Origin: a virus
Taxonomy: Duplodnaviria > Caudoviricetes
Length of the DNA stretch: 56,239 nucleotides
IMG/VR virus record: IMGVR_UViG_3300049927_000161
Location: 1-56,239 of that record
Strand: one strand, 5' to 3'
A program made the translations under genes and the position numbers. The notes beneath the pieces are model-generated. The model made no database searches and was not told where the DNA came from. It saw nothing but the letters and a program-made list of their open reading frames with translations. Below, piece after piece: positions 827 to 40,797 of the stretch (its first letter is position 1; every line of letters begins with the position of its first letter).

Positions 827-1345
827 ATGAGTTTATCAGCAGAAGACGCACGCGAACAACACAGAGTTTTTGACAAATTAAAATCGGGAAAGCCAAATCC
901 TCTAGAAAGAGATGTCTATCCAGAAGAGATTGATCTTGGCACAGACGTTTTGTCAGTAAAAGAATTTGAAGCGTTAACGATAAAAGACATCTGTGTTCGC
1001 TACAACAACATCCCAGCGTTCCTCGCAATCATCAAAAGTCAAAAAATCGTAACCGAGAATGAAATCAAAATGAATGCGCTAAAAGAATCTCGTGGAGAAC
1101 TGATAAGCCGTGATCTTTTGAAAATGGTCTTTGGTTTAATCGACCTAATGAACAAAAGATTGTTGGAGTGTCCACTGAGCTTTGTGAGCCACATAGCCGA
1201 TTTACTCAAAGCAGATCAAGTGTCCGCGGTAAAAGAATCCGAACAAATCATAACGAAGTTAATTTCAAAAATAATTTCAGGTTCAAAGAATGAAATTATG
1301 AAACAGTTAAAAGAGCCACAGAATGATAAAACCCTGGGCGAATAA
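827..1345 (+). CDS. Putative terminase small subunit
   Basis: Overlaps the start of TerL; helical C-terminal half with RGELISR motif typical of Nu1-like TerS. Confidence 0.65.
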   Translation: MSLSAEDAREQHRVFDKLKSGKPNPLERDVYPEEIDLGTDVLSVKEFEALTIKDICVRYNNIPAFLAIIKSQKIVTENEIKMNALKESRGELISRDLLKMVFGLIDLMNKRLLECPLSFVSHIADLLKADQVSAVKESEQIITKLISKIISGSKNEIMKQLKEPQNDKTLGE

Positions 1346-3191
1346 TAACGATAATGAATTTTTACACAATTGCATAGCGTCATTAACCGACGAAAAACTT
1401 TTATTAAAAGTCAGCGAATGGGCTGAAAGAACGCGCTACATGCCGCCCGAATTAACAGCAATGCCCGGTCCTTGGGAAAACTTCCGCTTTCCATACAACG
1501 TCGAAATTATGGATTGCTTCTCTGATATCAGTCCAATACGTGAAGTAGCCTTCATGAAAGGCGCACAAATCGGCGCAACAACAGGAATTTTAGAAAACAT
1601 AATAGGCTATGTGATAGACCATTCTCCCGCCCCCATGATGTTTGTAAGCGCGGACAAGACGTTGGTTGAACAAGCCGTGGAAGTGCGTGTTAACCGCATG
1701 TTGGAATCTTCTAACCTTTCACACAAGATTCAAAGTCAAAGTAGTTCCGGTAGCGCAACCGGTAACACAAAAAGCAAAAAAGAATTCCCTGGCGGATTTT
1801 TATTGGCCGTGGGCGCGATTAATCCTACAAAATTACGTTCGTTCACAATTAAGATTTTGTTAATGGACGAAGTCGATGGCTACAAATTGGAAGCCGGCGA
1901 AGAAGGCGATCCGATATCGTTAGCCAAAAAGCGAACTAACACGTTTGAGCAATCACGCAAAATTCTTTACATAAGCACGCCTCACTTAAAAGGCGTTAGC
2001 AAAATTGAGGCCTTGTACCTACGCGGTGATCAACGCAAATATTTTGTTCCGTGCAAACACTGTGGAGAGATGCAGACATTAGAATTCAATTCTGCTAAAG
2101 GTGGAAAATTAATTTATGACCTGGACAATTTTGGAAATTTAATCGAAGACAGCGTCCACTACGTTTGCCCACACTGTGGCGGTTTGTGGAAAAATTCTGA
2201 TAAAGCGTGGTTTTTGCAGCGCGGCGAGTGGCGCGCAACCGCAACATCTTCCGATCCTACCTTCAGGAGCTATCATTTAAGCGGCCTGTACAGTCCGCCA
2301 AGCACGTATTCCTGGTCAAGTGTGGTTAGGGACTTCCTAGAGGCCATTAAGTCCAATGACAGGATGAAAACTTTTGTGAATACTGTTTTGGGAGAATCTT
2401 ACGAGGAAACTGGAGAAAGTATTCTCTACACAACAATTTTCAAAAATAAAATTGATTATCTGGCTGGCACAATTCCCGACCCCGTTAAATTCTTAACAAT
2501 AGGGGCAGACTTGCACAAAGACCGGATAGACTTGGAAGTAGTGGGCTGGGCAGATAACTACGTAAGCTATTCCATTGACTGGAGATCGTTCAGAGGAGAT
2601 GCGTTGCGTCCAGACAGTCAAGTGTGGCTAGATTTTGATAATTATGTGGCAGAGTTGAATCAAATAAAAAAAGTAAGAGCCGTCATGATTGATAGCGGTT
2701 ATTCAGCAAACACGGTTTATTCATTTTGCGTGGGCTACAAATCTGGAATGTACCCGATCAAGGGTACGGCTCCACCTAAAAATGGCATTGTTAAATCTCC
2801 TTATTACAAGCGAGACATTGATAATTATGGCGGCTTAGTGGGAGTTAATGCGATTGTAGACATTTATAAAGACCGTTTGCATGGGTTTTTGCATCTAGAA
2901 ATTAAAGACAAAGTCGTTCCGCACGGCTATTGTTTTTATCCGCAAGACTATCCAGACGAGTTTTTTAAGCAATATTCTTCAGAAAAAAAATTCATGAAAT
3001 TGAATTCAAAGGGACAAGTTATTGGTTACGAATGGGCAAAGGCCACGCAACACGTTGACAATCACGCGTTAGACTGTAGAGTCTACAATTACGTTGCGTT
3101 GGATTTCTTAATAGACGCCATGAGAGAAAAATATAACAATCCTGAGTTGACTGTGGAACAATTCTTTACTTTAATTGAAAATGAACATTAA
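1323..3191 (+). CDS. Terminase large subunit, lambda GpA family
   Basis: KGAQIGAT Walker A variant, LLMDEVD Walker B, ISTP, CxxC zinc motifs, GADLHKDR nuclease, NHALDCRVY. Confidence 0.95.
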   Translation: MIKPWANNNDNEFLHNCIASLTDEKLLLKVSEWAERTRYMPPELTAMPGPWENFRFPYNVEIMDCFSDISPIREVAFMKGAQIGATTGILENIIGYVIDHSPAPMMFVSADKTLVEQAVEVRVNRMLESSNLSHKIQSQSSSGSATGNTKSKKEFPGGFLLAVGAINPTKLRSFTIKILLMDEVDGYKLEAGEEGDPISLAKKRTNTFEQSRKILYISTPHLKGVSKIEALYLRGDQRKYFVPCKHCGEMQTLEFNSAKGGKLIYDLDNFGNLIEDSVHYVCPHCGGLWKNSDKAWFLQRGEWRATATSSDPTFRSYHLSGLYSPPSTYSWSSVVRDFLEAIKSNDRMKTFVNTVLGESYEETGESILYTTIFKNKIDYLAGTIPDPVKFLTIGADLHKDRIDLEVVGWADNYVSYSIDWRSFRGDALRPDSQVWLDFDNYVAELNQIKKVRAVMIDSGYSANTVYSFCVGYKSGMYPIKGTAPPKNGIVKSPYYKRDIDNYGGLVGVNAIVDIYKDRLHGFLHLEIKDKVVPHGYCFYPQDYPDEFFKQYSSEKKFMKLNSKGQVIGYEWAKATQHVDNHALDCRVYNYVALDFLIDAMREKYNNPELTVEQFFTLIENEH

Positions 3192-29580: not shown

Positions 29581-32415
29581 TTATTTTAGCTCATACTTTG
29601 GATTACCACTCAGCTTAATGTGCCGCTTTATATTGATCTTACGGAAGCCTTGTTGGCTGAATCCTTTGAAAATGTACCAGTCGCCCATCTTACCATTCTC
29701 TAAAATCTGGACGCCAATCTTAGGATAATCAAAGCGGTTCACACCGCAAATCATCTGACTTGTATCGTCTTCAACTGTCAATGAAAGAAATAGATTTTTA
29801 CCGTCCTCAACCCTTACACCACCATGCTTCTCTAAGTTTAAAAGTTCGTTTCTGTCGCGCAAGTTTTTCTCTGTGATCTTTGCTATAAAGCAGAACTCAC
29901 CTATTGATTCGTGTGTAATTTCTTCTAATTTCGTTAGCGGCGTGACAATGTTGTACTTGCTAGGATCTTTAATAATGTGTCCCCAACGATCTTCGCATTC
30001 AAAAATAGAATCATAGGGCGTGACGCCATGTTCCAGTAATTCGTTTTGACGCTTAGTCAGTGGCTTACCTTCCGCACGCTTTTTCAAGATGTCGTTAGCG
30101 GTTTTTTCAGCTATGCCCTTTATTCCTATAAGGCCACCCACGAGCATTCCATTTTGTACAGACCAATTCACTTGCGACAATTCCTTGTCGTACTTCTTAT
30201 ACTTATACCCTGCTTGTTCAAGTTCCCTCAAAATCTTAACGCTTTTTGATGGATCAATGTCGCCATTACGTAAACATGCCGCGCCATACTCAAGCGGAAA
30301 CTTTGCTTTAAGCAACATGCACCAATAACTTATGATGCCATATGCCACGGCGTGGGAACGATTAAACGCCCATGATCCCATCGTGTTAATGTTGTCCCAG
30401 ATGGTTTGTGCTTGTTCCATCGTTAAACCATTCTTCAACGCGCCCACTTTGAATCTTTCAAAGAAGCTATCGAAGAATTCTTTACCAAGACTTTTCGACA
30501 TTGCTTTGCGTAATGAGCTGACGTCTTCCCACGTCAATTCTCCCACTTCCCGCGCTATCTGCATGACCTGTTCTTGGTAAATAACGATTCCATAGGTCAG
30601 TTTAGTAATGTTCTCACAGAGAGGAAGATGCTCTGTTTCATGCTCTTTGTTGCGTCGTTTTAAAAACTCTGACGCGCCGCCGGAAAAAAGTGGTCCGGGT
30701 CTGCCTAAACTGGTTAAGCTAATGACGTCTTCGATGTTGTCAATAACCAATTGTCTACACAGCGACTGAATGCTAAAGCCTTCAAATTGAAATATTCCTG
30801 CAGGGCGACGTTGATTCATCACTTCAAACGCTGACTTGTCGTCTAGTCTGTAATTCAGCAAAGTTTTTAAGTCCCAGTTAACTTGCGCAAGAGTATCGTC
30901 AATAACCGCTAGTGTGGTTAATCCCAGTACGTCAATTTTAAGCAGATTAAGTTCTTCAGCGTCATATTTATCTATCTGTGCCGCGCCAGTTTGTGCGTCC
31001 ACAGAACAATACCAACTCACTGGGTTTTTAGTAATAATGATACCGGCTGCATGTACGCCCGTATGTCTTGCGTGTGCTTCAATTTCTTCACTGACGCGCA
31101 ATTCTGGGTATTTATCAAGAATCTTACGCGCAATTTCAAGACTATCAAACGTGTCTTTGATGCACATTTTAGCGCGTGCATCGCCTGTACTACGGTTAAC
31201 AATTGCGTTCTTAAGTTCGTTAATTTCCCATAGAGGAATCTTAAGTTCCCGCGCAACGTCTGTAATTGTTACTTTGGCTTGATAACGTGACACAGTGCCG
31301 AGTCGCGCAACGCAATTCGCGCCATATTTTTGTTGGAGATAACTGAAAATCATATCTCTCTTATTATCTGGAAAATCGATGTCGATATCGGGAAGGTCTT
31401 TTCGATTAATGTCGATAAATCGCTCAAACAATAAATCATAAGGAATTGGATCAATTTCAGTGATAGACAATAAGTAGCAAACAAGAGAACCGCACGACGA
31501 ACCTCTGGCAGGACCGACAAGCATGTATTGCTTAGCATATAGGCATAAATCAGAAACAACATAAAAATAATCCTCAAAGTTTTTTTCAGCTATTAACGCT
31601 AATTCACGGTCTAATCTATCCATGTAGACTTTATTTGTTAAATCAATATTGCGTGCGGGGGCGGCGTCAATACACGTTTGACGCAATGACTTCTCCTTGA
31701 CAGGTTCTACAATCTCAGCTTTGGGCAGTTCTGCATTGCATTCTTCAGCGATCCTGTAAGTTGTCGCAATAGCATGATGATTATCACAATAGAGTTTCCA
31801 TTCGTCTTCGCTTAATATGTGCATAGGGCTTGAGCGCAACTCTTTATTTCTGCCAGCAACAATTTCATAAGCATTGCGATCACTTGGCTTAGGATAGTAA
31901 TTATCACTTACTGCAACAACAGCAATTTTTAATTTACTAATCAATTCAATGTCGTTTGGAGTTGTAGACGGAGACATTCCATAATAAACATTATGACGCT
32001 TGGCCAACGATTTAAATTCTTTTGTTTCGTCAAGATTACTTAAAATAATAAACACATTGTCGCTAACATTTTTAACGATGGAAAAATCAATACGAGGAAA
32101 ATAATAAAATTTCTCAGTCGCTATGGAAACTAACTCATAAATTTCCCTTAGCCCATCATTGTTTTTGGCTAAAAAACTCACGTACCTAACACCCTGCTTC
32201 TCCCGCAAGTTAGCATCGTCAACCCAAGCCAATTCCACACCAAAGATCGGCTTGACACCATTCCTCTTGCAAAGCTTTTGCCACGCAACATGTCCCCACG
32301 TTCCCTTGCGGTCGCAGATAGCGGCGGCGGATCCATGATTAGCAGCTAGGACATTTTCAATTTTCCCGTAGGCGCAACCAAAACTGTACTCTGTGCGGTT
32401 CTTTAAATTAATCAT
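29581..32415 (-). CDS. dnaE: DNA polymerase III alpha subunit (family C)
   Basis: PHP domain (RTEYSF, KPIFGVE), GPARGS, LLFERF, PDIDIDF, HAAG, KIDVLG, GIFQFE, YQEQVM, FNRSHA; ATGA overlap at 32412-32415. Confidence 0.96.
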   Translation of the reverse strand: MINLKNRTEYSFGCAYGKIENVLAANHGSAAAICDRKGTWGHVAWQKLCKRNGVKPIFGVELAWVDDANLREKQGVRYVSFLAKNNDGLREIYELVSIATEKFYYFPRIDFSIVKNVSDNVFIILSNLDETKEFKSLAKRHNVYYGMSPSTTPNDIELISKLKIAVVAVSDNYYPKPSDRNAYEIVAGRNKELRSSPMHILSEDEWKLYCDNHHAIATTYRIAEECNAELPKAEIVEPVKEKSLRQTCIDAAPARNIDLTNKVYMDRLDRELALIAEKNFEDYFYVVSDLCLYAKQYMLVGPARGSSCGSLVCYLLSITEIDPIPYDLLFERFIDINRKDLPDIDIDFPDNKRDMIFSYLQQKYGANCVARLGTVSRYQAKVTITDVARELKIPLWEINELKNAIVNRSTGDARAKMCIKDTFDSLEIARKILDKYPELRVSEEIEAHARHTGVHAAGIIITKNPVSWYCSVDAQTGAAQIDKYDAEELNLLKIDVLGLTTLAVIDDTLAQVNWDLKTLLNYRLDDKSAFEVMNQRRPAGIFQFEGFSIQSLCRQLVIDNIEDVISLTSLGRPGPLFSGGASEFLKRRNKEHETEHLPLCENITKLTYGIVIYQEQVMQIAREVGELTWEDVSSLRKAMSKSLGKEFFDSFFERFKVGALKNGLTMEQAQTIWDNINTMGSWAFNRSHAVAYGIISYWCMLLKAKFPLEYGAACLRNGDIDPSKSVKILRELEQAGYKYKKYDKELSQVNWSVQNGMLVGGLIGIKGIAEKTANDILKKRAEGKPLTKRQNELLEHGVTPYDSIFECEDRWGHIIKDPSKYNIVTPLTKLEEITHESIGEFCFIAKITEKNLRDRNELLNLEKHGGVRVEDGKNLFLSLTVEDDTSQMICGVNRFDYPKIGVQILENGKMGDWYIFKGFSQQGFRKINIKRHIKLSGNPKYELK

Positions 32416-33632
32416 GCTTGCACCCACAATAATTTTTTCTTAGCCCGTGTCACGGCTGTATACAGCCACCGACGACGGAACTCCATGTCTTGGCTACGAA
32501 TACGGTCGTCATCTACTATGACGTAATCCCACTCACTGCCTTGAGCTTTGTGACACGTAATCGCATACGCATAATCAAATTCTCGTAAGTCTTGGCGGTT
32601 AAACCACGGCTCTTCCTCGATGGTTTTGTCATAATGTCTTCGGAAAAAATAATCGTAAATCTTAACGTCTTTTATTGGAAGATCATCGTATTCCATGTCT
32701 AAATAGCAATGTCCGTCGTCTGGGCTGTATTCAGCAACGCTGGTTGTTATTGCTTGTATGCCATTAATAAAGCGGAAGTTTCCAGCGTTTTGATTTTTCA
32801 AACAAATAATCTTTTCATTGCGCGCTGGCATTTCACCAAAATATCCAAAATACTTTCTCAGTTCACGATTGATTCTCTGACGATTGAAATTTGAGCCTGT
32901 AATAATTTGGTCTGCTTTTGCAAATTCTTCTATTGAAGTTTGATCACGCTTTGCAAATTTACAATCGTCCGTTGAGTATTCACTTTTCCTAATAGAATTA
33001 TTACGGATCTCCATGCTCATTCTGATAATTGGACTGTCCAACGCTTGACGCTGAATCTCTGTTAGCACAGCATCACTTTTTCCATAGACAAACCATTCGC
33101 TGTCGCCAATGGCTGGCAACTGGCCGTGATCGCCCACAAACAATACTTTGCAGTTTGTTTTCTCAAAGTCTTCAAACATTTTTTTAGTGACCATAGACGC
33201 TTCATCAACAACAATCAATTGTCCTGGGCGAATATCAAAATCGTCTTTTATTGAAAAGCTGATTTTGACTTTAGCAAGTCTCTTTTTCTCTTTATCAATT
33301 TCTTTCATTATGTTTTTATCGTCAGGATTTTTAAGCGCAAGTTCTAATAATTCTTCAAGATAGACTGAGCAAGGCATGAATGGCGTATAAAGCAATTTAT
33401 GAATCGTAATAACAATCTGATTCTTTAGCTTGCGCGCCAAGACGGAAGCCGCTTTGCCAGTGGGCGTGCAACAAATAACGGGTTCTGATGTGGGCAAGTT
33501 ATTAATAAAATGTTGCATCGTAAACGTCTTGCCAGTACCAGCATAGCCCTTAAGCGTAAAAAACCATTTTGAATCGTCAGCAAGCCATTTATTCACGGCC
33601 ATTAACGCTGCGTCTTGCTCTTTTGTTAGCAT
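32412..33632 (-). CDS. RecD/Dda-like SF1B helicase
   Basis: GYAGTGKT, TPTGKAA, VDEASM, GDHGQL, YAITCHKAQGSE, YTAVTRA. Confidence 0.92.
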   Translation of the reverse strand: MLTKEQDAALMAVNKWLADDSKWFFTLKGYAGTGKTFTMQHFINNLPTSEPVICCTPTGKAASVLARKLKNQIVITIHKLLYTPFMPCSVYLEELLELALKNPDDKNIMKEIDKEKKRLAKVKISFSIKDDFDIRPGQLIVVDEASMVTKKMFEDFEKTNCKVLFVGDHGQLPAIGDSEWFVYGKSDAVLTEIQRQALDSPIIRMSMEIRNNSIRKSEYSTDDCKFAKRDQTSIEEFAKADQIITGSNFNRQRINRELRKYFGYFGEMPARNEKIICLKNQNAGNFRFINGIQAITTSVAEYSPDDGHCYLDMEYDDLPIKDVKIYDYFFRRHYDKTIEEEPWFNRQDLREFDYAYAITCHKAQGSEWDYVIVDDDRIRSQDMEFRRRWLYTAVTRAKKKLLWVQA

Positions 33633-33643
33633 ACAATTTCCTT

Positions 33644-34180
33644 TTATAATTTACCGCGTGAATGTAATTCTATGACAATACGTGTTAACGCTTCTACGTC
33701 ATTCATTGCTCTGTGTGCGTCTTTGAATTTTTCATTGAAAAAATGTTGATAGAGTTCGATTAATTTCAATTTTCTATTCTGAATATAGAACGTTCTTTCT
33801 ACAGTACACACATGATTCATAGGCCAAGGAAAATGATGAATCCTGTCAAGACGCATGAGTTCGTACTTCAACATGTCTCTATCAAAAGCGACATTATGTG
33901 CAACCATCGTTCTTTCACCGAGGAAGAATTCGCTTAATACCTTTAAATAAGCGGAGAATGGCGGCTTAGTACTCACCATTTCATTAGTTATACCGCTAAC
34001 TCTTACAGCGTCAGGCTCAATCATTTTATTTGGATTACACATAAACTCCATTCTTCCGATTTCTCGGAATGTTTCGTCGTCAAGTTTGATCGCTGCAAAC
34101 TCAACAATGGAAGTTTGCTTGTCAAGCGGCGTCATTGAAGACTTTGCCAGACCTGTTGTTTCAGTGTCGAAGATTATCAT
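33644..34180 (-). CDS. DEDDh 3'-5' exonuclease (DnaQ/epsilon-like)
   Basis: FDTETTG, HNVAFD, HRAMNDV. Confidence 0.92.
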   Translation of the reverse strand: MIIFDTETTGLAKSSMTPLDKQTSIVEFAAIKLDDETFREIGRMEFMCNPNKMIEPDAVRVSGITNEMVSTKPPFSAYLKVLSEFFLGERTMVAHNVAFDRDMLKYELMRLDRIHHFPWPMNHVCTVERTFYIQNRKLKLIELYQHFFNEKFKDAHRAMNDVEALTRIVIELHSRGKL

Positions 34181-34662
34181 TTTTTATTCCTTAGATTGTG
34201 GATTTCTGTTGTTTGTTCATGGATGTGATGGTCAAGCGAATATAAACTTTCTTTTAGGCGTTTATTCTCATTGCTCAGCTTTTTATTAAGAGCTTTAATT
34301 GCCGTGACTTCATGGGTTAATTTAAGTAAGTTACTTTCTAACTCGTCTTTTTCTTGGGTAAGATCTATAAAAGACTTTTCAAGATCATTATAATCATTTT
34401 CAAGTTTTTCTTTACCGTCCTCAATTTCACCTATTTCATCTTCACGATCAGAGTGGGCAACTTCTAAATCAGTAAATCTTTCTTCAATTTCCACCAATTC
34501 TTTTTCTTTTTCAACAAAATTGTCGCCCATAACTTCAAGCCTTTTTGAAATTTCTAAAACTAATTCAGGACTAAAAGTAACTTCTTGTTTTAAAGAAAGG
34601 CGAATTATTCTGTCTTCAATGAGCAGTAATAATTCTCTGTCCGTCAGTGTTCTATAATTCAT
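34177..34662 (-). CDS. Coiled-coil protein
   Basis: Heptad-rich acidic sequence; ATGA overlaps on both sides. Confidence 0.7.
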   Translation of the reverse strand: MNYRTLTDRELLLLIEDRIIRLSLKQEVTFSPELVLEISKRLEVMGDNFVEKEKELVEIEERFTDLEVAHSDREDEIGEIEDGKEKLENDYNDLEKSFIDLTQEKDELESNLLKLTHEVTAIKALNKKLSNENKRLKESLYSLDHHIHEQTTEIHNLRNKK

Positions 34663-35330
34663 GCTTTCTGCTCCTTATATTGTTCATCCACAAATTGCAA
34701 AATCGCCAAATAAATGCCTGCATCGTGTGCAGAATCTTTGTGGCCACCCGCCATGAAATTATTCGCGTAACGGCATATTTTGCCAATCGTCCATTCCAAG
34801 AGATGGAGCCGCGTGAAGTCTTCTGAATTTTTTAAAGTTAATCCGTTCGGAAACATAGCAGACATCACATTGCCAACTTTAAAAAATGAATTGCCGTATT
34901 GTTTGTTCTTTTCAGTGTAGGTCTTTTGCATTTCTTTAAGAATGTGCATAGCATTTTTATCTGAATATTGTCCATGTGTATTGTTAGGAATTTCATCAAT
35001 GGTTAATGTGTGCGAATCTTCAGCACCATATTTTTCTAATTCATAACCAGCAAAATTAAATAAATAAATAATACTTATAATTTTTTCGCTTAAAATATCA
35101 TATGTAGTACATTCATGACCTTTTCCATCCACGAATATTTTTTCAATAAATTGCTGATAAACTTCAAAATACCTATCATAAATTGCCATGTCAAAGTCGC
35201 CTATAAATCTTCTTCCCCCAAATTCATCTTTATGCGCACGAATAATAGATCTAATTCTTCTTAAAGACTTTAAATAATATTCTATAGGAACTATAACGTG
35301 ATCAAATTTTACATGTGTTATTCCATTCAT
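34659..35330 (-). CDS. Nucleotide-modification-associated (Nmad1/DUF1599-like) all-alpha domain protein
   Basis: C-term EKNKQYGNSF...KICRYAN...DSAHDAGIY matches the KN.DYG...K..R...DT..D..NY pattern. Confidence 0.6.
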   Translation of the reverse strand: MNGITHVKFDHVIVPIEYYLKSLRRIRSIIRAHKDEFGGRRFIGDFDMAIYDRYFEVYQQFIEKIFVDGKGHECTTYDILSEKIISIIYLFNFAGYELEKYGAEDSHTLTIDEIPNNTHGQYSDKNAMHILKEMQKTYTEKNKQYGNSFFKVGNVMSAMFPNGLTLKNSEDFTRLHLLEWTIGKICRYANNFMAGGHKDSAHDAGIYLAILQFVDEQYKEQKA

Positions 35331-36136
35331 TACCGTTGCCCCCCTGCTAAATCAATACAAGAACCGCTTAAGTATTTACGGTCTTGCATTAACAAATCAA
35401 CCACCACTTCTGCAATTTCTTTCTTTGTTAAAAAATTGCCTAGTGGACATTCTGCAGACCAATAAGCTTTAGCTTCCTCATCTGTCAAGTCTCTATAGCG
35501 TTTAAGATCTTGAATGGTTTTTTCTGACATTGGGGAATCTTGTACATTGCTTGGATTAACGCAAAATATTTGGAATCCTTTAGGAGCCAATTCATAAGCC
35601 GCGCATTTTACAAAATGGTTAAGGCCAGCTTTTGCAGCGCAATAAACAGATGAACCATTAAGAACATTTTTATAGGCCATGCTACCAATAAAGACTATTT
35701 TTTTCCAAGAATTTTTTTCATTAAAGTTCTTACAAGCAATGCTCTTTCTTACTATCCAATTTAAAGAAATAATATTAGCAATTAAATTCTTGTTAATAAT
35801 TTCTATAACTCTTTTATCAGTAAGATTTTCTATCCAATCAAGGTGAGTATAACCATTATTAAATACAAAATAGTCAAAGTCTTGGAAGTTGCTTCCATTG
35901 TCACAACCTTTAATAACTTCTCTTTCTTCTGTCTTTAATAAGTCCCATTCTTCCTCAGTAAAAAATTGAACTCTTTTATTTTTATTAACTAATTCTTGAG
36001 CAATTCCATGTCCAATATTATTTTTTTGATAACCAAAAATAGCAGTTCTTGGGGATTCATTTTCAATAATATTTTTTAATAAAGCCTCATGATTATTTTT
36101 TAAATATTCTTTATGTATCTGCCCTTTCGTTCTCAT
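35330..36136 (-). CDS. Short-chain dehydrogenase/reductase (SDR)
   Basis: NNG, IVFIGS, YCAAK (YxxxK), ELAPKG, VNP, IDLAGG; atypical Gly motif GYQKNNIG. Confidence 0.88.
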   Translation of the reverse strand: MRTKGQIHKEYLKNNHEALLKNIIENESPRTAIFGYQKNNIGHGIAQELVNKNKRVQFFTEEEWDLLKTEEREVIKGCDNGSNFQDFDYFVFNNGYTHLDWIENLTDKRVIEIINKNLIANIISLNWIVRKSIACKNFNEKNSWKKIVFIGSMAYKNVLNGSSVYCAAKAGLNHFVKCAAYELAPKGFQIFCVNPSNVQDSPMSEKTIQDLKRYRDLTDEEAKAYWSAECPLGNFLTKKEIAEVVVDLLMQDRKYLSGSCIDLAGGQR

Positions 36137-36137
36137 T

Positions 36138-36623
36138 TTAATACTCTCCTTTTTGACACTGTAAACACGTAATACCGTTGCGACGCCACATTTCAACGAC
36201 TTGATCGCGGTCTTCTACGGCAAATTTAATATTGTAGAATTGATTTAAGTTTTGAAGAATTTCTTCTTTGACTATGTAGTCTGGCCGATGGTCTCCTGTC
36301 CTTCTCATGCGCAACGGATACACGTAAGGAATTCCAATGTGCAAGTCAAGCCAGTCCTTAGTGACAATTCTCCATTTTTCTTCTCGACCCGTCACAATAA
36401 CAATTAAATATTTATAAGAGAAAATTTTTAATAAATCTATTATGTCTTTTTTGGGAATATCACCAACACACAAACTATTAAAATCATCATAATTTTTTTG
36501 CTCACCAGTAACATAGTGCAGTCTATGGGTTATGTCTGCTAGCGTTCCGTCTATATCAAAAATAACGGCGTCCTTTTTATTTACCGTTCTACTCAATAGA
36601 TTTAATTCAACTACATTACTCAT
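36138..36623 (-). CDS. HAD phosphatase (T4 PNKP phosphatase-like)
   Basis: FDIDGTLAD, VTGR, MR..GD.RPD..VK, EDRDQVV.MWR..G. Confidence 0.9.
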   Translation of the reverse strand: MSNVVELNLLSRTVNKKDAVIFDIDGTLADITHRLHYVTGEQKNYDDFNSLCVGDIPKKDIIDLLKIFSYKYLIVIVTGREEKWRIVTKDWLDLHIGIPYVYPLRMRRTGDHRPDYIVKEEILQNLNQFYNIKFAVEDRDQVVEMWRRNGITCLQCQKGEY

Positions 36624-37350
36624 AAGATAAGTCCTTCTTAATTCTGTCAATAAATTTCATGATATTAATAAAATCATCATGATCCATTAGTTCTTTTTCT
36701 ATTAATAAAACAAAATGATTAACAAGTAATTCAAAATCTTTGTAGTCTGGCTTTAAAAACAATTCTGTCCACGGATGAACTTCTATCACGCACGCAATCA
36801 TTTTTTCGACTACGCCGCGATATTCTTCCTGTGTGCGCCAGCCAGTTCTTGCGCGGGCAATTTCGGCTAAGGTTCGCAAATTGAATTGAGCGACGATGTT
36901 TGTATGGATATTGGTGGGGAGTACGCCGCGTGCGTCTTCTGTTTTAATGCCAAGCTTTAATAAGGTATTATAATATTCTTGAATTTGTTCCATACAATGC
37001 TCATACATTGCCTTGGCTGTTGTGTCTTTCTCAATTTCGGGTGGCGTGTGGTAAGTAAACTTTTCCATATTAACCATGCGCATTGTCTGTTGCGCAAAAC
37101 TGCCATGCCTGTTGCGGACAAACTGGTGAGTGAATCCCCTGCTGACGTCTTCAATTAAAAACGTATAACTGACAAACTCCCAACTGCTTGGAATGGTTTT
37201 AGCCATGTATTCTAGTTCTTTTAATTTGTCCTCACGTGGCATTTCAAAAACTTTTTCTAATTCTGCAGCCGTTAGGTTTAGCCGCGTATTTTTAGTCATT
37301 ATCAATTTTTCCATAGCACATTTTGTACTATCAATCAAACTTACTTTCAT
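36616..37350 (-). CDS. thyX: FAD-dependent thymidylate synthase ThyX-like (variant signature)
   Basis: VSRGFTHQFVRNRHGSFAQQTMR, EDARGVLP, NLRTL, QEEYR. Confidence 0.82.
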   Translation of the reverse strand: MKVSLIDSTKCAMEKLIMTKNTRLNLTAAELEKVFEMPREDKLKELEYMAKTIPSSWEFVSYTFLIEDVSRGFTHQFVRNRHGSFAQQTMRMVNMEKFTYHTPPEIEKDTTAKAMYEHCMEQIQEYYNTLLKLGIKTEDARGVLPTNIHTNIVAQFNLRTLAEIARARTGWRTQEEYRGVVEKMIACVIEVHPWTELFLKPDYKDFELLVNHFVLLIEKELMDHDDFINIMKFIDRIKKDLSYE

Positions 37351-37361
37351 ATATTTTCCTT

Positions 37362-38333
37362 TTATTTACTATTAATTAAACGCTTCTGATAACTGTTTCT
37401 GCCTTCTATAAAACTGTCAATTACTTTAACGTCATTAACAATGTCATCCAACAACAACTGTCGCCACGTTGCAAAACGACCCAGACTATAGATGCCGAAT
37501 CTGTCTGACATTTCTACTATAAATTGTTTGCGGAAAGTATCGTCTATTGGGAGAATTTTTCCGTATTTTTGATAACTAACTTTTGCATCGTAAATATCAC
37601 ATACAATTCCAAGACAACGATCTAATAATCCTTCAACTTCTTCCCTGTAATTATCAGTATCAAATATTTCTTTCTCAATAGCATTTTCATGCTTTGTGAA
37701 TTCAATCGTTAATAAATTTCCCGTTATAGAGGCTCTATAAACATTGTCATCGGTCGCTGGATAATAAATTGTTTGATAAACGTCAATTTCAGTATTGAGT
37801 TTGCAAGTAAAGGTATAAATTTCTTTATGATTAAACTTAATTTTTTTATTAGGATTATATCCTAACAAATCCAGTAATCTTTCCATTGGAATTGTACTGA
37901 TGACGGGTATTTCAGTCTTCTTAAAATAATCAATGTGGCTTGAGCTAAACTCTTTATTAAAGCTGATGTTCACATTTTTAGCCAACAACTCAATCAAATT
38001 TTCCGGAGAGATATAACGCTCACAATCATTAAGATTATTTAAACTACGACTATAAATACCACCCGTCACTTTCTTGCTGTACATGTTCTGCATACGCAAG
38101 TCCGCTTTGTCGTGGAGCTTGTCCTCAAAATACACTGCCTTTTTAACATGTACTTTTTTAAATTTTATGCCCGTTGCTTCTGCCACAACATTACTCCTAA
38201 AGCGCAACAAAGCAGAATGATTGTTCGGTAGCGTTGATTGAGCCTCTATAATCAATGGGTTTTTGTGTCGGAGCATGTTAGCAGCGATAAGACCACTCAT
38301 GCCCGCACCGACGATGATGACTTCGTTTTTCAT
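37362..38333 (-). CDS. FAD-dependent oxidoreductase (UDP-galactopyranose mutase/HemY-like fold)
   Basis: IIVGAGMSGL Rossmann motif, ISTIP, LGRFATW. Confidence 0.8.
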   Translation of the reverse strand: MKNEVIIVGAGMSGLIAANMLRHKNPLIIEAQSTLPNNHSALLRFRSNVVAEATGIKFKKVHVKKAVYFEDKLHDKADLRMQNMYSKKVTGGIYSRSLNNLNDCERYISPENLIELLAKNVNISFNKEFSSSHIDYFKKTEIPVISTIPMERLLDLLGYNPNKKIKFNHKEIYTFTCKLNTEIDVYQTIYYPATDDNVYRASITGNLLTIEFTKHENAIEKEIFDTDNYREEVEGLLDRCLGIVCDIYDAKVSYQKYGKILPIDDTFRKQFIVEMSDRFGIYSLGRFATWRQLLLDDIVNDVKVIDSFIEGRNSYQKRLINSK

Positions 38334-38356: not shown

Positions 38357-38596
38357 TTACGTTATTTCAGTTTTAGGAAAATGTTTTTTAACAAGCCCTA
38401 TGGTTTCTTTAAAAGTGTTGTATTCAGTTATTGTTTCTAATAATTGAATATTAAGGCGCTCATTTTCCCTGTTGCGCAAAGCAATAAGTCCTTTGAGTCG
38501 TAAATTTTCAATTGTAAGATCCATGGTTCTTGTACGGAATTCTTCAATGCGTTTTGAATTGTCAAATACGTTCCGTATAAATCTAATTAGACACAT
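38357..38596 (-). CDS. Hypothetical coiled-coil protein
   Basis: ATG 38596 with SD; fills the gap in the operon. Confidence 0.5.
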   Translation of the reverse strand: MCLIRFIRNVFDNSKRIEEFRTRTMDLTIENLRLKGLIALRNRENERLNIQLLETITEYNTFKETIGLVKKHFPKTEIT

Positions 38597-38870
38597 CCTC
38601 AAACTCCTGTTGTTTATTCTTACAATCACGTTGCTTGTCGGACAATTCAACATAGCCGTGTTTTAAGTCCCACTTGAGATCCATGTTACGACCACCCATT
38701 TTAATAAATTCCTCGTACCGCATACCGTTCACAATCAATCCGTGTGAGCGATGACCCACAGAGTTTTTTCTCCGTGGGTTTTCAGCAGAGAGTTTATAAA
38801 TATAAAGACCGTTAAACTTTTTATTTCTGCGACGAATTTTTGTCGCGAATGCTTTAATGACTTTGTTCAT
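38583..38870 (-). CDS. Small basic protein, NPRR-domain paralog of 27763-28251
   Basis: ENPRRKNSVG...GMRYEEFIKMGGRNMDLKWDLKHGYVEL. Confidence 0.7.
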   Translation of the reverse strand: MNKVIKAFATKIRRRNKKFNGLYIYKLSAENPRRKNSVGHRSHGLIVNGMRYEEFIKMGGRNMDLKWDLKHGYVELSDKQRDCKNKQQEFEDVSN

Positions 38871-38882
38871 AGTTCCTCTTGA

Positions 38883-39788
38883 TTACATGGGTGAATCTTC
38901 ATCAACTTCTTGTTGCTGATAATGCTGAGCGTCAGTCGCTTTAACATTAAATTTATTTTCATTAATCTGTTTATAAAGATCACGCGCTTTTAAGTAAATC
39001 ATTGAACCGTTTGGCACATTCACAATGTCTCCGTGACGCGTGATAACCCAGCCCATCCATGTTCCTTTTGAATTACTTTCCGGCGTTGTTGATAATTTAA
39101 AAACGGAATAGAACAATGCTGGGTTGTAAAATTTTCCTTTATTGGTCGTTGATTCAACCAACAAACTATTAATCATCGTATTGAGTGTACGAGATTTTTT
39201 AAGCTGTGTGCTAGCCATGCTCAAGACTGCAGGACTAAAAATGCCAGTTTTAATATCAACCAAGTAAACAATGTATTCAGCCGTTGGCGTAATAATGTTT
39301 CCTTCCTTAGTAATATCCCTGCCCTTCTTGTCTTTTGTGCAGCCATTCAAGACGCTGGAGTTACCACCATGATCTTTTACAATGCCGCCGCCACCAGAAG
39401 ATTCTCTGTCACGCCATTCGATATACGCAAATCGATAGGAAGCAGGCACAATATACACGCCTTCCGCGCCGTTATAGAGTTCACGAGTAGTCGTGTTAAA
39501 AATCATGCCGACTTTTGCGCCTTCGATATAATCTTCTTTTGCAGACTCATCAACTTGTGGTGATCCTTTTTGCATAATGTAAAGGCGTGGAATGGCATAG
39601 TCGGAAACTTTCATTTCTTCTTGACCTTTGCCCGCGTCTTCTTCAAACAAATTCACTGCTGCAGAAGGTAAAGTTTCAGCGTGATGAGCTTCCACTAATT
39701 CCATCTGATCTAACTTTCCTGGAACATCCACAATTTTCTCTGCCTGTTGCTGTGCTTTTTGAATTTTCTCTTTCTGTTTAGTTGCCAT
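38883..39788 (-). CDS. Putative single-stranded DNA binding/annealing protein
   Basis: IPRL.IMQ..SPQV, YIEW, MASTQLKKSR, ESN.KGTW; acidic C-terminal tail EVDEDSPM. Confidence 0.6.
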   Translation of the reverse strand: MATKQKEKIQKAQQQAEKIVDVPGKLDQMELVEAHHAETLPSAAVNLFEEDAGKGQEEMKVSDYAIPRLYIMQKGSPQVDESAKEDYIEGAKVGMIFNTTTRELYNGAEGVYIVPASYRFAYIEWRDRESSGGGGIVKDHGGNSSVLNGCTKDKKGRDITKEGNIITPTAEYIVYLVDIKTGIFSPAVLSMASTQLKKSRTLNTMINSLLVESTTNKGKFYNPALFYSVFKLSTTPESNSKGTWMGWVITRHGDIVNVPNGSMIYLKARDLYKQINENKFNVKATDAQHYQQQEVDEDSPM

Positions 39789-39806
39789 TTTCACTTCTCC
39801 TATTGT

Positions 39807-40403
39807 TTACTTTTTACGTACTTTTGCTGATGTAATTTCAGCCTTGCGACCTTCAAAAATCGCAAAAGTATCTGTCGGAACTTTTGCGCCTGCTTTGAGC
39901 TTTTCGCGGATGAACGCGCCCAGTGTTTGATGATTGACGGATTCTTTTTCCTCAACCAACACTGCCAAGCTTTCCGCAAATTCTTTAATTTTCTGAGCGA
40001 CTTCTTTATTGTCTTTGCCAACGTCTGCAATAATTTGATTTTTAATAATGGCCGCGCCGTCATTTTCACGTAACCACTTAAGCCCTTCCAGCCTACGCAA
40101 TTTTGCCGCCATGTCTTTTTCTGCTGCACCTTCCGCGGGCAATGACGAATTAATAAAGCTTTTAATCTTAATCATTGAGCCGTCTGTCAACGTGAATTCT
40201 TTAATTCTGAATTGATCCATCAGGTTTGGAAGATCAACACTTTCAATCCTGTTCAATTCTTCTTGTTCTATTTTTAATTTTTTCTCAATTTCTATAATTA
40301 AATTCTGTTGATAAATAATCTTATTCGCCAACTCAGAAATATTTTTAAAATCGCCTGAAATTGTTTGAACGTCTTCTTCAAAGTTTATGTTATCTGACAT
40401 CAT
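39807..40403 (-). CDS. Conserved phage replication-module protein
   Basis: Coiled coil, then LPNLM, WLRENDG.AIIK, VNHQTL.AFIRE; typically precedes the SSB-like gene. Confidence 0.65.
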   Translation of the reverse strand: MMSDNINFEEDVQTISGDFKNISELANKIIYQQNLIIEIEKKLKIEQEELNRIESVDLPNLMDQFRIKEFTLTDGSMIKIKSFINSSLPAEGAAEKDMAAKLRRLEGLKWLRENDGAAIIKNQIIADVGKDNKEVAQKIKEFAESLAVLVEEKESVNHQTLGAFIREKLKAGAKVPTDTFAIFEGRKAEITSAKVRKK

Positions 40404-40416
40404 AATTGTTCCTTAA

Positions 40417-40797
40417 TTAATAGAGTTCTTTTAAATCGTAACAAACAGGAATGTAATACCCGTCACGGAATATGACGTTGCCTTCTTCGTCTTTTTTGCG
40501 CACACGATTCCAAATTAGAAAATTGATTTTGTCAAGTGACATATAGTTAGACAAAATCATCACGGCAATATGCGCGGCGGAAGGATCACCACCCCACGGC
40601 CACAGAACATAATCTTTTTCAAAATTAAAATCCTTTAGCGCGTCCCTTGCTATGCGAATAGACTTGACGTTATTGCCATTGACTGGATAGCCATTTTCAA
40701 AAATAAATTTTAATTCGCCGTACTTAACAGCGGAACTTAGATCGGGAGTCCATTTTTTTTCTGTTGGGGCAGCTTGATGAGTTACATAGACCGTCAT
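40417..40797 (-). CDS. Hypothetical protein
   Basis: First gene of the leftward operon; DLSSA.KYG, GDP motifs. Confidence 0.6.
   Translation of the reverse strand: MTVYVTHQAAPTEKKWTPDLSSAVKYGELKFIFENGYPVNGNNVKSIRIARDALKDFNFEKDYVLWPWGGDPSAAHIAVMILSNYMSLDKINFLIWNRVRKKDEEGNVIFRDGYYIPVCYDLKELY

Follow-up and report, generated by a model that had tools for sequence, protein, structure and literature searches.

A virus-only flavoprotein and an atypical ThyX in a conserved phage gene cassette: a tentative candidate for sugar-type hypermodification of thymidine

IMGVR_UViG_3300049927_000161 is an uncultured, linear virus record of 56,239 bases with a completeness of 81% (CheckV); its entire length constitutes the window analyzed here. 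On its minus strand, a flavoprotein, an atypical ThyX, a HAD phosphatase and a short-chain dehydrogenase/reductase (SDR) are packed together with the phage's own replication genes, which raises the question of what such enzymes contribute beside a DnaE-type DNA polymerase. A first-pass annotation of the DNA had suggested an undescribed base-modification pathway, in which a redox-tailored, possibly sugar-derived pyrimidine is made at the nucleotide level and incorporated by DnaE. We find this interpretation partly supported: the core of the block recurs in cultured phages with unusual thymidine derivatives, while the proposed route into DNA is doubtful.

Nine minus-strand open reading frames (ORFs) are packed from position 38333 down to 29581, and neighbouring genes either overlap or stand no more than 11 nt apart, assuming ATG starts at 36623 for the HAD gene and at 36136 for the SDR gene. 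Gene content, order and tight packing are as first annotated. The family assignments below use UGM for UDP-galactopyranose mutase, PPO for protoporphyrinogen oxidase and PNK for polynucleotide kinase.

37362..38333, minus strand: flavoprotein, 323 aa; phrog_4828; predicted UGM/PPO-like fold
36616..37350, minus strand: atypical ThyX, 244 aa; PF02511, TIGR02170
36138..36623 (ATG; longest ORF from TTG 36650), minus strand: stand-alone HAD phosphatase of the T4 PNK 3'-phosphatase type; PF25109
35330..36136 (ATG; longest ORF from TTG 36196), minus strand: classical SDR, FabG-like, accessory cassette member; adh_short
34659..35330, minus strand: 223-aa protein with a putatively DUF6378-related helical C-terminal domain; phrog_4889, C-terminal part
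34177..34662, minus strand: coiled-coil protein, 161 aa; matches to Pfam/NCBIfam families of coiled-coil type, all below cut-off
33644..34180, minus strand: DnaQ-type 3'-5' exonuclease; PF00929, E=4.5e-27; phrog_192
32412..33632, minus strand: Dda/RecD-type SF1 helicase; AAA_30, UvrD_C_2; phrog_325, Dda-like, E=7e-92
29581..32427, minus strand: DnaE-type DNA polymerase III alpha, 948 aa; PF07733, PF17657, PHP; phrog_405, E=2e-225

The conservation of this arrangement was studied in IMG/VR, where a pattern scan with the flavoprotein alignment yielded 533 confirmed loci. The best 80 of these were fetched, many of them cut short. ThyX lies downstream of the flavoprotein on the same strand in 78 of the 80 loci, and in the two loci lacking it (L009 and L033) the sequence stops less than 0.4 kb past the flavoprotein gene. 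The helical domain of the 223-aa protein is present in 67 loci, DnaQ in 66, HAD in 59 and DnaE in 57, all of them collinear. The linkage of flavoprotein and ThyX is far beyond chance. The core order flavoprotein-ThyX-HAD-helical protein-DnaQ-DnaE is found as well in Pbunavirus, Wifcevirus and Ss1-like phages, and the trio flavoprotein/ThyX/HAD is annotated in the same order in the Pbunavirus members Banzai, F8 and 14-1. Vibrio phage VA-RY-3 carries flavoprotein and ThyX, two other genes, and then DnaQ and DnaE, and in Rhizobium phage RHph_TM40 (Kleczkowskaviridae) the genes for flavoprotein and ThyX lie inside 6 kb together with a HAD-like gene. In INPHARED, the flavoprotein occurs in 362 records and ThyX-like proteins in 614, with equal counts in phages of Pseudomonas (292/292) and Escherichia (27/27). 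The block is conserved in hundreds of phages, and we regard the cassette as real, old and phage-specific.

The flavoprotein is assigned to phrog_4828 (E=1e-77), labelled 'unknown function' in PHROG. Both motifs that had led to the earlier designation as a UGM-like FAD oxidoreductase, GAGMSG and GRFATW, are present in its translation. A Pfam search up to E=10 retrieved only a sub-threshold NAD_binding_8 match and no GLF match, and comparison of the sequence with PDB gave no match at E<=1. The AlphaFold2 (AF2) model, based on 46 sequences, reached a predicted local distance difference test (pLDDT) score of 87.1 and a predicted template modelling (pTM) score of 0.85. Its best Foldseek matches are UDP-galactopyranose mutases (E ~1e-10, template modelling (TM) score 0.55-0.68, root-mean-square deviation 6-10 A), with PPO and renalase (4zcc) nearly as good. 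The 3383 homologs found at E<=0.001 reside nearly all on viral-type contigs, and the Atlas neighbours are 95-100% viral. We classify the protein as a member of an orphan, virus-only family of FAD type with a modelled UGM/PPO-type fold. G9, G11, G14, E30, N38, H39, R44, R46, R286, W290, D296 and D297 are among its invariant residues. A complex prediction combining the ThyX and flavoprotein alignments returned a score of 0.00, i.e., no answer, which speaks neither for nor against an interaction. In one metagenomic protein (P0099, 506 aa), the flavoprotein is naturally fused to an N-terminal YfbR-like HD 5'-deoxynucleotidase domain (residues 34-162). A search for longer homologs found no flavoprotein fusions above 566 aa, which is weak evidence.

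The ThyX of the window scores 133.4 bits against PF02511 (cut-off 24.8) and 101 bits against the TIGR02170 equivalog (cut-off 87.9). For a closer view of its active site, it was aligned with 79 further ThyX ORFs, drawn from as many loci bearing the flavoprotein (n=80), with positions numbered after T. maritima ThyX. In the window protein, the canonical residues His53, His79 and Tyr91 are replaced by Ile, Asn and Met, and RNR...T.RM stands in place of the RHRx7-8S signature. Tyr91 is found in none of the 80 sequences (the position is T, V, I, A, M, K or L), His79 in nine, with Thr in 65, and Ser88 is retained in 56. The position of His53 is occupied by Ile in 78 of the 80, and only two have any His within the 12 surrounding columns. 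The equivalents of Arg78, 80, 90, 147 and 174 (R79, R81, R91, R141 and R168 in the window) are invariant throughout the clade. The positions of His79 and Tyr91 are changed likewise in the ThyX of Banzai and VA-RY-3, and PLot has Gln and Phe. In the accessible text of the sources, Tyr91 and Ser88 are described as strictly conserved and critical (PMC8316439, PMC11940539), and His53 is said to stack on the pterin of folate (PMC11940539). Judged from the alignment, the clade has kept the dUMP-binding arginines and lost the folate-stacking and general-acid residues; its nucleotide site looks intact, and its carbon-donor and flavin face looks remodelled.

A possible purpose of such a pair of enzymes is suggested by the cultured carriers. 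As far as the accessible text of Yee et al. 2025 goes (bioRxiv 10.1101/2025.03.31.646159), liquid chromatography-mass spectrometry revealed novel thymidine derivatives in two Pbunavirus members, 362 U in F8 and 390 U in 14-1, which replace about one quarter of T, occur in TG context, and are read as tetrose sugar-alcohol and cyclised aldopentose derivatives. The same source reports cleavage of F8 DNA by EcoRI, HindIII, XbaI, DraI and BsaI and cites Pbunavirus as a hypermodified phage without known modification genes (10.1101/2025.03.31.646159). Neither 'thymidylate' nor 'flavin' occurs in the text of Yee et al. (10.1101/2025.03.31.646159), and modification genes are unnamed there, in the Banzai paper and in PMC13307970. 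Our literature search retrieved no paper joining phage, UDP-galactopyranose mutase, thymidylate synthase and DNA polymerase III, and none on a Pbunavirus flavoenzyme. An earlier digest of a PB1-like phage, which was cut by EcoRI and HindIII (both incompletely), Sau3A and AluI (Essoh 2013), is compatible with Yee et al. and uninformative.

The window and F8/14-1 have in common the flavoprotein, ThyX, HAD, DnaQ, DnaE, two helicases and two genes resembling those of phage Pam3, with the trio, DnaQ and DnaE being collinear; identities to Pbunavirus are 37-38% for the flavoprotein, 36-37% for ThyX and 25% for HAD. As a genuine, ancient and phage-specific block whose cultured carriers contain a sugar-like thymidine of unexplained origin, the cassette is the best candidate for the corresponding pathway. 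We therefore favor, tentatively and at somewhat less than an even chance, the reading that the core, i.e., the UGM-fold flavoprotein, the remodelled ThyX, the PNKP-type HAD and the DUF6378-like helical protein, most likely helps to make a sugar- or polyol-type hypermodified thymidine as in F8 and 14-1. A separate observation concerns phrog_5310, a family of unknown function. F8 gp070 (L086:4573-5769) and 14-1 gp71 (L087:15997-17301) share only 13-26% identity in a central block, between neighbours that are 92-100% identical, which makes the gene a candidate for setting the adduct.

How might the core act? The flavin enzyme would activate C5 or the C5-methyl of a uracil or thymine unit via flavin-iminium or hydride chemistry, and the activated unit would be coupled to a sugar or sugar phosphate. 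Along one conceivable route, the thymine methyl in DNA would be oxidatively coupled with a polyol or sugar hydroxyl, where a flavoprotein working at the DNA level could act at TG sites. Along another, a ThyX-like C-C coupling would join an aldose to dUMP, for which phage SP-15 offers a loose precedent. HAD would then strip a phosphate, SDR would reduce or oxidize the sugar part as the redox tailoring step in this record, and the resulting DNA would resist restriction. For the first route, mass arithmetic gives 362.33 for dT + tetritol - H2 and 390.34 for dT + pentose - H2; for the second, dU + pentose + H2 - H2O gives 362.34 and dU + hexose - H2O gives 390.35. Both routes match the reported 362 and 390. 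A broader version of this idea, which we hold to be rather unlikely, credits the UGM-fold flavoprotein and ThyX together with flavin chemistry not known before, attaching a sugar or its phosphate to uracil or thymine at C5 or at the methyl on C5 without glycosyltransferase, ThyA-type hydroxymethylase or dioxygenase. Tailoring enzymes taken up in a variable slot (SDR and methyl-, carbamoyl- and sulfotransferases) would have diversified this chemistry across hundreds of phages; it would amount to new enzymology in DNA hypermodification and would explain the Pbunavirus thymidine.

Enzymes of other modification pathways were looked for in the record, bearing in mind its completeness of 81%. ThyA (PF00303) and TET/JBP (PF12851) have no match, nor do the dCMP deaminase and trimeric dUTPase families, nor PF00534 (GT1) and PF00535 (GT2), the only two glycosyltransferase families searched. 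The first-pass statement that genes of the classic pathways are missing holds for dCMP deaminase and these two glycosyltransferase families, extends to ThyA and TET/JBP, and is left aside for PurZ and the 7-deazaguanine families, which were not searched. The ORFs scanned gave no kinase match, a result obtained without models for 5-hydroxymethyldeoxyuridine (5-hmdU) DNA kinase or aGPT-Pplase. No NTP pyrophosphatase was identified (MazG PF03819 is without match in the record).

The HAD protein matches PF25109 HAD_PNKP with 115 bits (cut-off 27.6, E=3.7e-33) and, in PDB, T4 PNK (1ltq, E=1.5e-20) and 5uj0 (E=3.9e-20). It contains the DxDGT nucleophile motif as FDIDGT. With a length of 161-170 aa it has no fused 5'-kinase domain, and its match to 1ltq is confined to residues 145-301, the phosphatase part. 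By these similarities it is a protein of the polynucleotide 3'-phosphatase type, as distinct from a known dNMP drain; a depletion of the canonical dNTP, as suggested in the first-pass annotation, is not supported. In Pbunavirus, the helical domain is fused behind HAD in a protein annotated 'polynucleotide kinase/phosphorylase' (phrog_4889). The impression that such fusions are widespread among the IMG/VR loci was rejected: they occur in one of the 80 (L047), and a few fusions, Pbunavirus included, had merged both families in the clustering.

The SDR matches PF00106 (60.7 bits), PF13561 (65.2 bits) and phrog_3142, its best family matches being generic. The YCAAK motif (YxxxK) noted in the first-pass annotation is present, as is FNNG, and the N-terminal Gly-rich motif is divergent. 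SDR genes were identified in 24 of the 80 IMG/VR loci by blastp of ORFs (21 by tblastn) and always adjoin HAD or the helical protein. The window SDR is 31% identical to gp65 of mycobacteriophage PLot, which is encoded directly upstream of the PLot DnaE. The PLot locus (L003:6905-12694) comprises a methyltransferase (gp63), the SDR (gp65), DnaE (gp66) and, just downstream, a ThyX-like protein with Phe at the Tyr91 position (gp68); it is without the flavoprotein. The position of SDR in PLot is found again in cluster D mycobacteriophages and Gordonia phages.

The 223-aa protein had been taken for a Nmad1/DUF1599-like protein. This label was rejected: no Pfam family matches up to E=10, and PF07659 is absent from the record at E<=1. 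A word-based homolog search retrieved the protein itself only, and an exhaustive search among cluster representatives gave 1746 matches at E<=0.001 for the C-terminal ~95 residues. Every match listed, the query itself excepted, is limited to the C-terminal part, as is the match to phrog_4889 (E=3.9e-16). Among the 42 aligned members (41 homologs and the query), 12 match DUF6378 (PF19905) at E<=0.01, the query itself being unmatched at E<=1; the nearest Atlas clusters bear PF19905. By homology, the C-terminal domain (about 125-220) is tentatively classed as DUF6378-related. The AF2 model depicts it as a confident four-helix bundle (pLDDT >=93 over 130-223). Comparison of the model with PDB folds gave none at E<=0.001 (best E=2.2), and a PDB profile search with the corresponding alignment (A2) gave chance-level matches only. 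A MazG/NTP-pyrophosphatase identity is likewise unsupported, neither a PDB fold nor PF03819 being matched. For residues 1-120, a set of 1.8 billion cluster representatives contained no relative, and the model is of low confidence; the N-terminal half has no homolog in any other of the 83 loci compared. The gene may have arisen recently by fusion or extension. The coiled-coil protein is without PHROG and without homolog in the 83 loci and is thus specific to this record.

Between ThyX and DnaQ, the loci reveal a variable slot, which was scanned with one representative per gene cluster.

SDR in the slot: 24-26 loci
DenV-like pyrimidine-dimer glycosylase in the slot: 26 loci
Methyltransferase in the slot: a cluster of 12 loci
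NodU/CmcH-type carbamoyltransferase, between flavoprotein and ThyX: 4 loci
Sulfotransferase in the slot: VA-RY-3

By family membership, the methyl-, carbamoyl- and sulfotransferases, and possibly SDR, are hydroxyl-decorating or -oxidizing enzymes. The carbamoyltransferase (L023:10939-12603; also in L024 and two further loci) combines PF02543 and PF16861. The VA-RY-3 protein (L002:8683-9438), located between ThyX and DnaQ, belongs to the sulfotransferase family (PF13469, 30.4 bits, cut-off 27).

Several observations weigh against a role of the core in thymidine hypermodification. The window ThyX clears the cut-off of a curated ThyX equivalog, and no other thymidylate synthase is encoded in the record, so plain dTMP synthesis fits. 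The nearest characterized relatives of HAD are DNA/RNA 3'-phosphatases, and the DenV-like glycosylase beside it in 26 loci is consistent with DNA repair. The block almost always accompanies DnaE and DnaQ, and its synteny may mirror the descent of the replication module. Marking of a TG context would need a DNA-level, sequence-reading step, whereas a ThyX with all mononucleotide-phosphate arginines looks like an enzyme of the nucleotide pool. The adducts of F8 and 14-1 differ, yet their flavoproteins are 97% and their ThyX proteins 94% identical; the comparison, which covered ~20 kb of each genome, found no adduct-determining gene inside the core; the HAD fusion (80% identical) varies in its linker. 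The gene that stands out by its divergence in these ~20 kb is gp070/gp71 (57%), which has no homolog in the window. Finally, both the link between genes and modification in the relatives and the presence of a modification in this phage are inferred from sequence. The ThyX score, the likeness of HAD to T4 PNK (E=1.5e-20) with its DenV-like neighbour, the TG specificity, which is impossible from a pool enzyme, and the adduct difference unmirrored in flavoprotein or ThyX would all suit ordinary replication support, as would the position of the block amid helicases, exonuclease and DnaE. ThyX would then supply dTMP, HAD would clean DNA ends as a 3'-phosphatase like T4 PseT, flavoprotein, SDR and helical protein would be accessory cofactor-redox enzymes or unrelated, and the hypermodification of the relatives would be encoded elsewhere. 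We consider this a strong rival, only slightly less probable than the favored reading. It sits uneasily with a ThyX clade devoid of residues called strictly conserved or critical for catalysis and folate stacking, and with a virus-only UGM-fold flavoprotein that plays no part in dTMP synthesis but equals ThyX in number in two host groups (292/292; 27/27). Nor would it lead one to expect methyltransferase, carbamoyltransferase and sulfotransferase families of the hydroxyl-tailoring kind in the slot, and Pbunavirus has few other candidate enzymes for a modification to which the accessible text of Yee et al. assigns no genes.

The nucleotide-level route of the first-pass annotation, as reported for SP-15, would have the ThyX-like enzyme make a C5-substituted dUMP from a sugar-derived carbon donor; after tailoring by SDR and HAD and phosphorylation, DnaE would incorporate the product in place of some T. 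The dUMP-binding arginines kept beside a remodelled carbon-donor face are what it would call for, the SDR gene of SP-15 abuts a Thy1-family gene, PLot has SDR-DnaE-ThyX, and the dU-based masses fit. A sugar-derived pyrimidine does exist in F8 and 14-1, relatives that carry the core trio, but in F8 the modification is restricted to TG context according to the accessible part of the report, which argues against simple incorporation from the nucleotide pool by DnaE. As, moreover, neither an NTP pyrophosphatase nor a dedicated nucleotide kinase turned up and SP-15 gp129 and gp130 have no significant BLAST similarity to window proteins, we regard the making of the base at the nucleotide level as improbable. 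Less probable still is that flavoprotein, SDR and HAD serve small-molecule metabolism that has nothing to do with DNA bases, for example renalase-like repair of NAD(P)H or flavin, or a counter-defence metabolite, and are only co-transcribed with replication genes. In fold, renalase (4zcc) and amine-oxidase/PPO proteins lie little further away than UGM, and the SDR family matches are generic; the strict pairing with one ThyX clade and the 5'-deoxynucleotidase-like fusion in P0099, however, point to nucleotides.

The surroundings of the block place it within a larger mobile module. Upstream of the cassette lies a set of further conserved genes:

38883..40797, minus strand: three conserved module genes, Pam3 gp34-, gp33- and gp32-like; PF23977, PF23984, PF23992

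Such Pam3-like genes, which are homologs of 14-1 gp52 and gp53, occur upstream of the flavoprotein in 27-44 of the 83 loci. The cassette is flanked upstream, on the opposite strand, by a primase-type protein and downstream by an SNF2 helicase. At 38357-38870, two overlapping minus-strand ORFs of 98 and 95 aa, neither with a PHROG match, separate the flavoprotein from the Pam3 gp34-like gene. The DnaE of the window is 36-39% identical to the DnaE of Vibrio phage VA-RY-3, Wifcevirus and Pbunavirus, while its large terminase (1323-3191) is closest to terminases of Vibrio siphophages (~36%) rather than to those of Pbunavirus or Wifcevirus. By sequence comparison, the replication/enzyme module and the structural module have different nearest relatives. 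Given this affinity of the terminase, the sharing of the module is not only a matter of whole-genome descent. The stretch represents the enzymatic section of a module for replication and nucleotide metabolism, one that travels among otherwise unrelated phages.

If the trio is responsible for the thymidine hypermodification, it would bring to light a new, flavin-based route to sugar-decorated DNA and would provide a sequence marker to predict hypermodified genomes in metagenomes. Pbunaviruses are, according to the accessible text of the sources, among the phages most used for therapy against P. aeruginosa (PMC11990801; 10.1101/2025.03.31.646159), and their modification, discovered only recently, governs sensitivity to END nucleases and restriction; the conserved phage-only trio offers three concrete knock-out targets in these therapy phages. 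Should the cassette not be responsible for the modification, a ThyX clade without 'strictly conserved' catalytic residues still wants a biochemical explanation.

Compared with known systems, the single components have recognizable counterparts. T4 PNK/phosphatase (PseT) has a HAD domain homologous to the window HAD (E=1.5e-20) with DxDGT common to both, but the latter lacks a kinase domain and is partnered by a DUF6378-like domain. Canonical ThyX proteins (T. maritima, M. tuberculosis, PBCV-1) share the Thy1 fold and profile as well as the dUMP-binding arginines with the window protein; they differ from its clade, in which His53, His79 and Tyr91 are replaced and the gene is always paired with the orphan flavoprotein. 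UDP-galactopyranose mutase (Glf) is the best structural match of the flavoprotein, and both have the FAD dinucleotide-binding motif and the C-terminal GR..T[WY]. However, the flavoprotein is 40-60 residues shorter than bacterial UGMs, superimposes with a TM of 0.55-0.68, and belongs to a virus-only family without sequence-level match. A true UGM is described in a DNA-glycosylation cluster of Rhizobium phage RL38J1, but among glycosyltransferases, as far as the accessible text shows (PMC13326640).

At the level of whole pathways, Bacillus phage SP-15, in which 5-(4',5'-dihydroxypentyl)uracil partially replaces T, has in its genes 129-130 an SDR gene abutting a Thy1-family gene. It differs from the window in having glycosyltransferases and a different polymerase, and the gene roles are guesses by its authors. 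As relatives of the window proteins, gp129 and gp130 were rejected (BLAST E=0.038 and E=4.4, of which the second spans only 18 residues and amounts to noise), such that SP-15 serves as an analogy only. To go by cited titles, its base reportedly takes up a ribose-derived label and is synthesized as a nucleoside triphosphate. The Pbunavirus members F8 and 14-1 are set apart from the window by the fusion of HAD to the helical domain, the lack of SDR and their own genes gp066 and gp069-071; the structural genes of the window record are not Pbunavirus-like, and the record is known from sequence alone. The thymidine pathways of M6, ViI, PaMx11, SP10 and PhiW-14 are described in the accessible literature (Lee et al. 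2018, 2021; PMC8989533). They start with a ThyA-family dUMP hydroxymethylase and employ 5-hmdU DNA kinase and aGPT-Pplase (PMC8989533), whereas ThyA and TET/JBP are unmatched in the window record, and their flavoenzymes are MnmC1/DAO-like (PMC8989533) as opposed to the UGM/PPO fold predicted here. Like the cassette, these pathways are phage-encoded and multi-enzymatic, with partial replacement of T; their gene sets are combinatorial, and in PaMx11 a flavoenzyme, gp47, serves as a tailoring step (PMC8989533).

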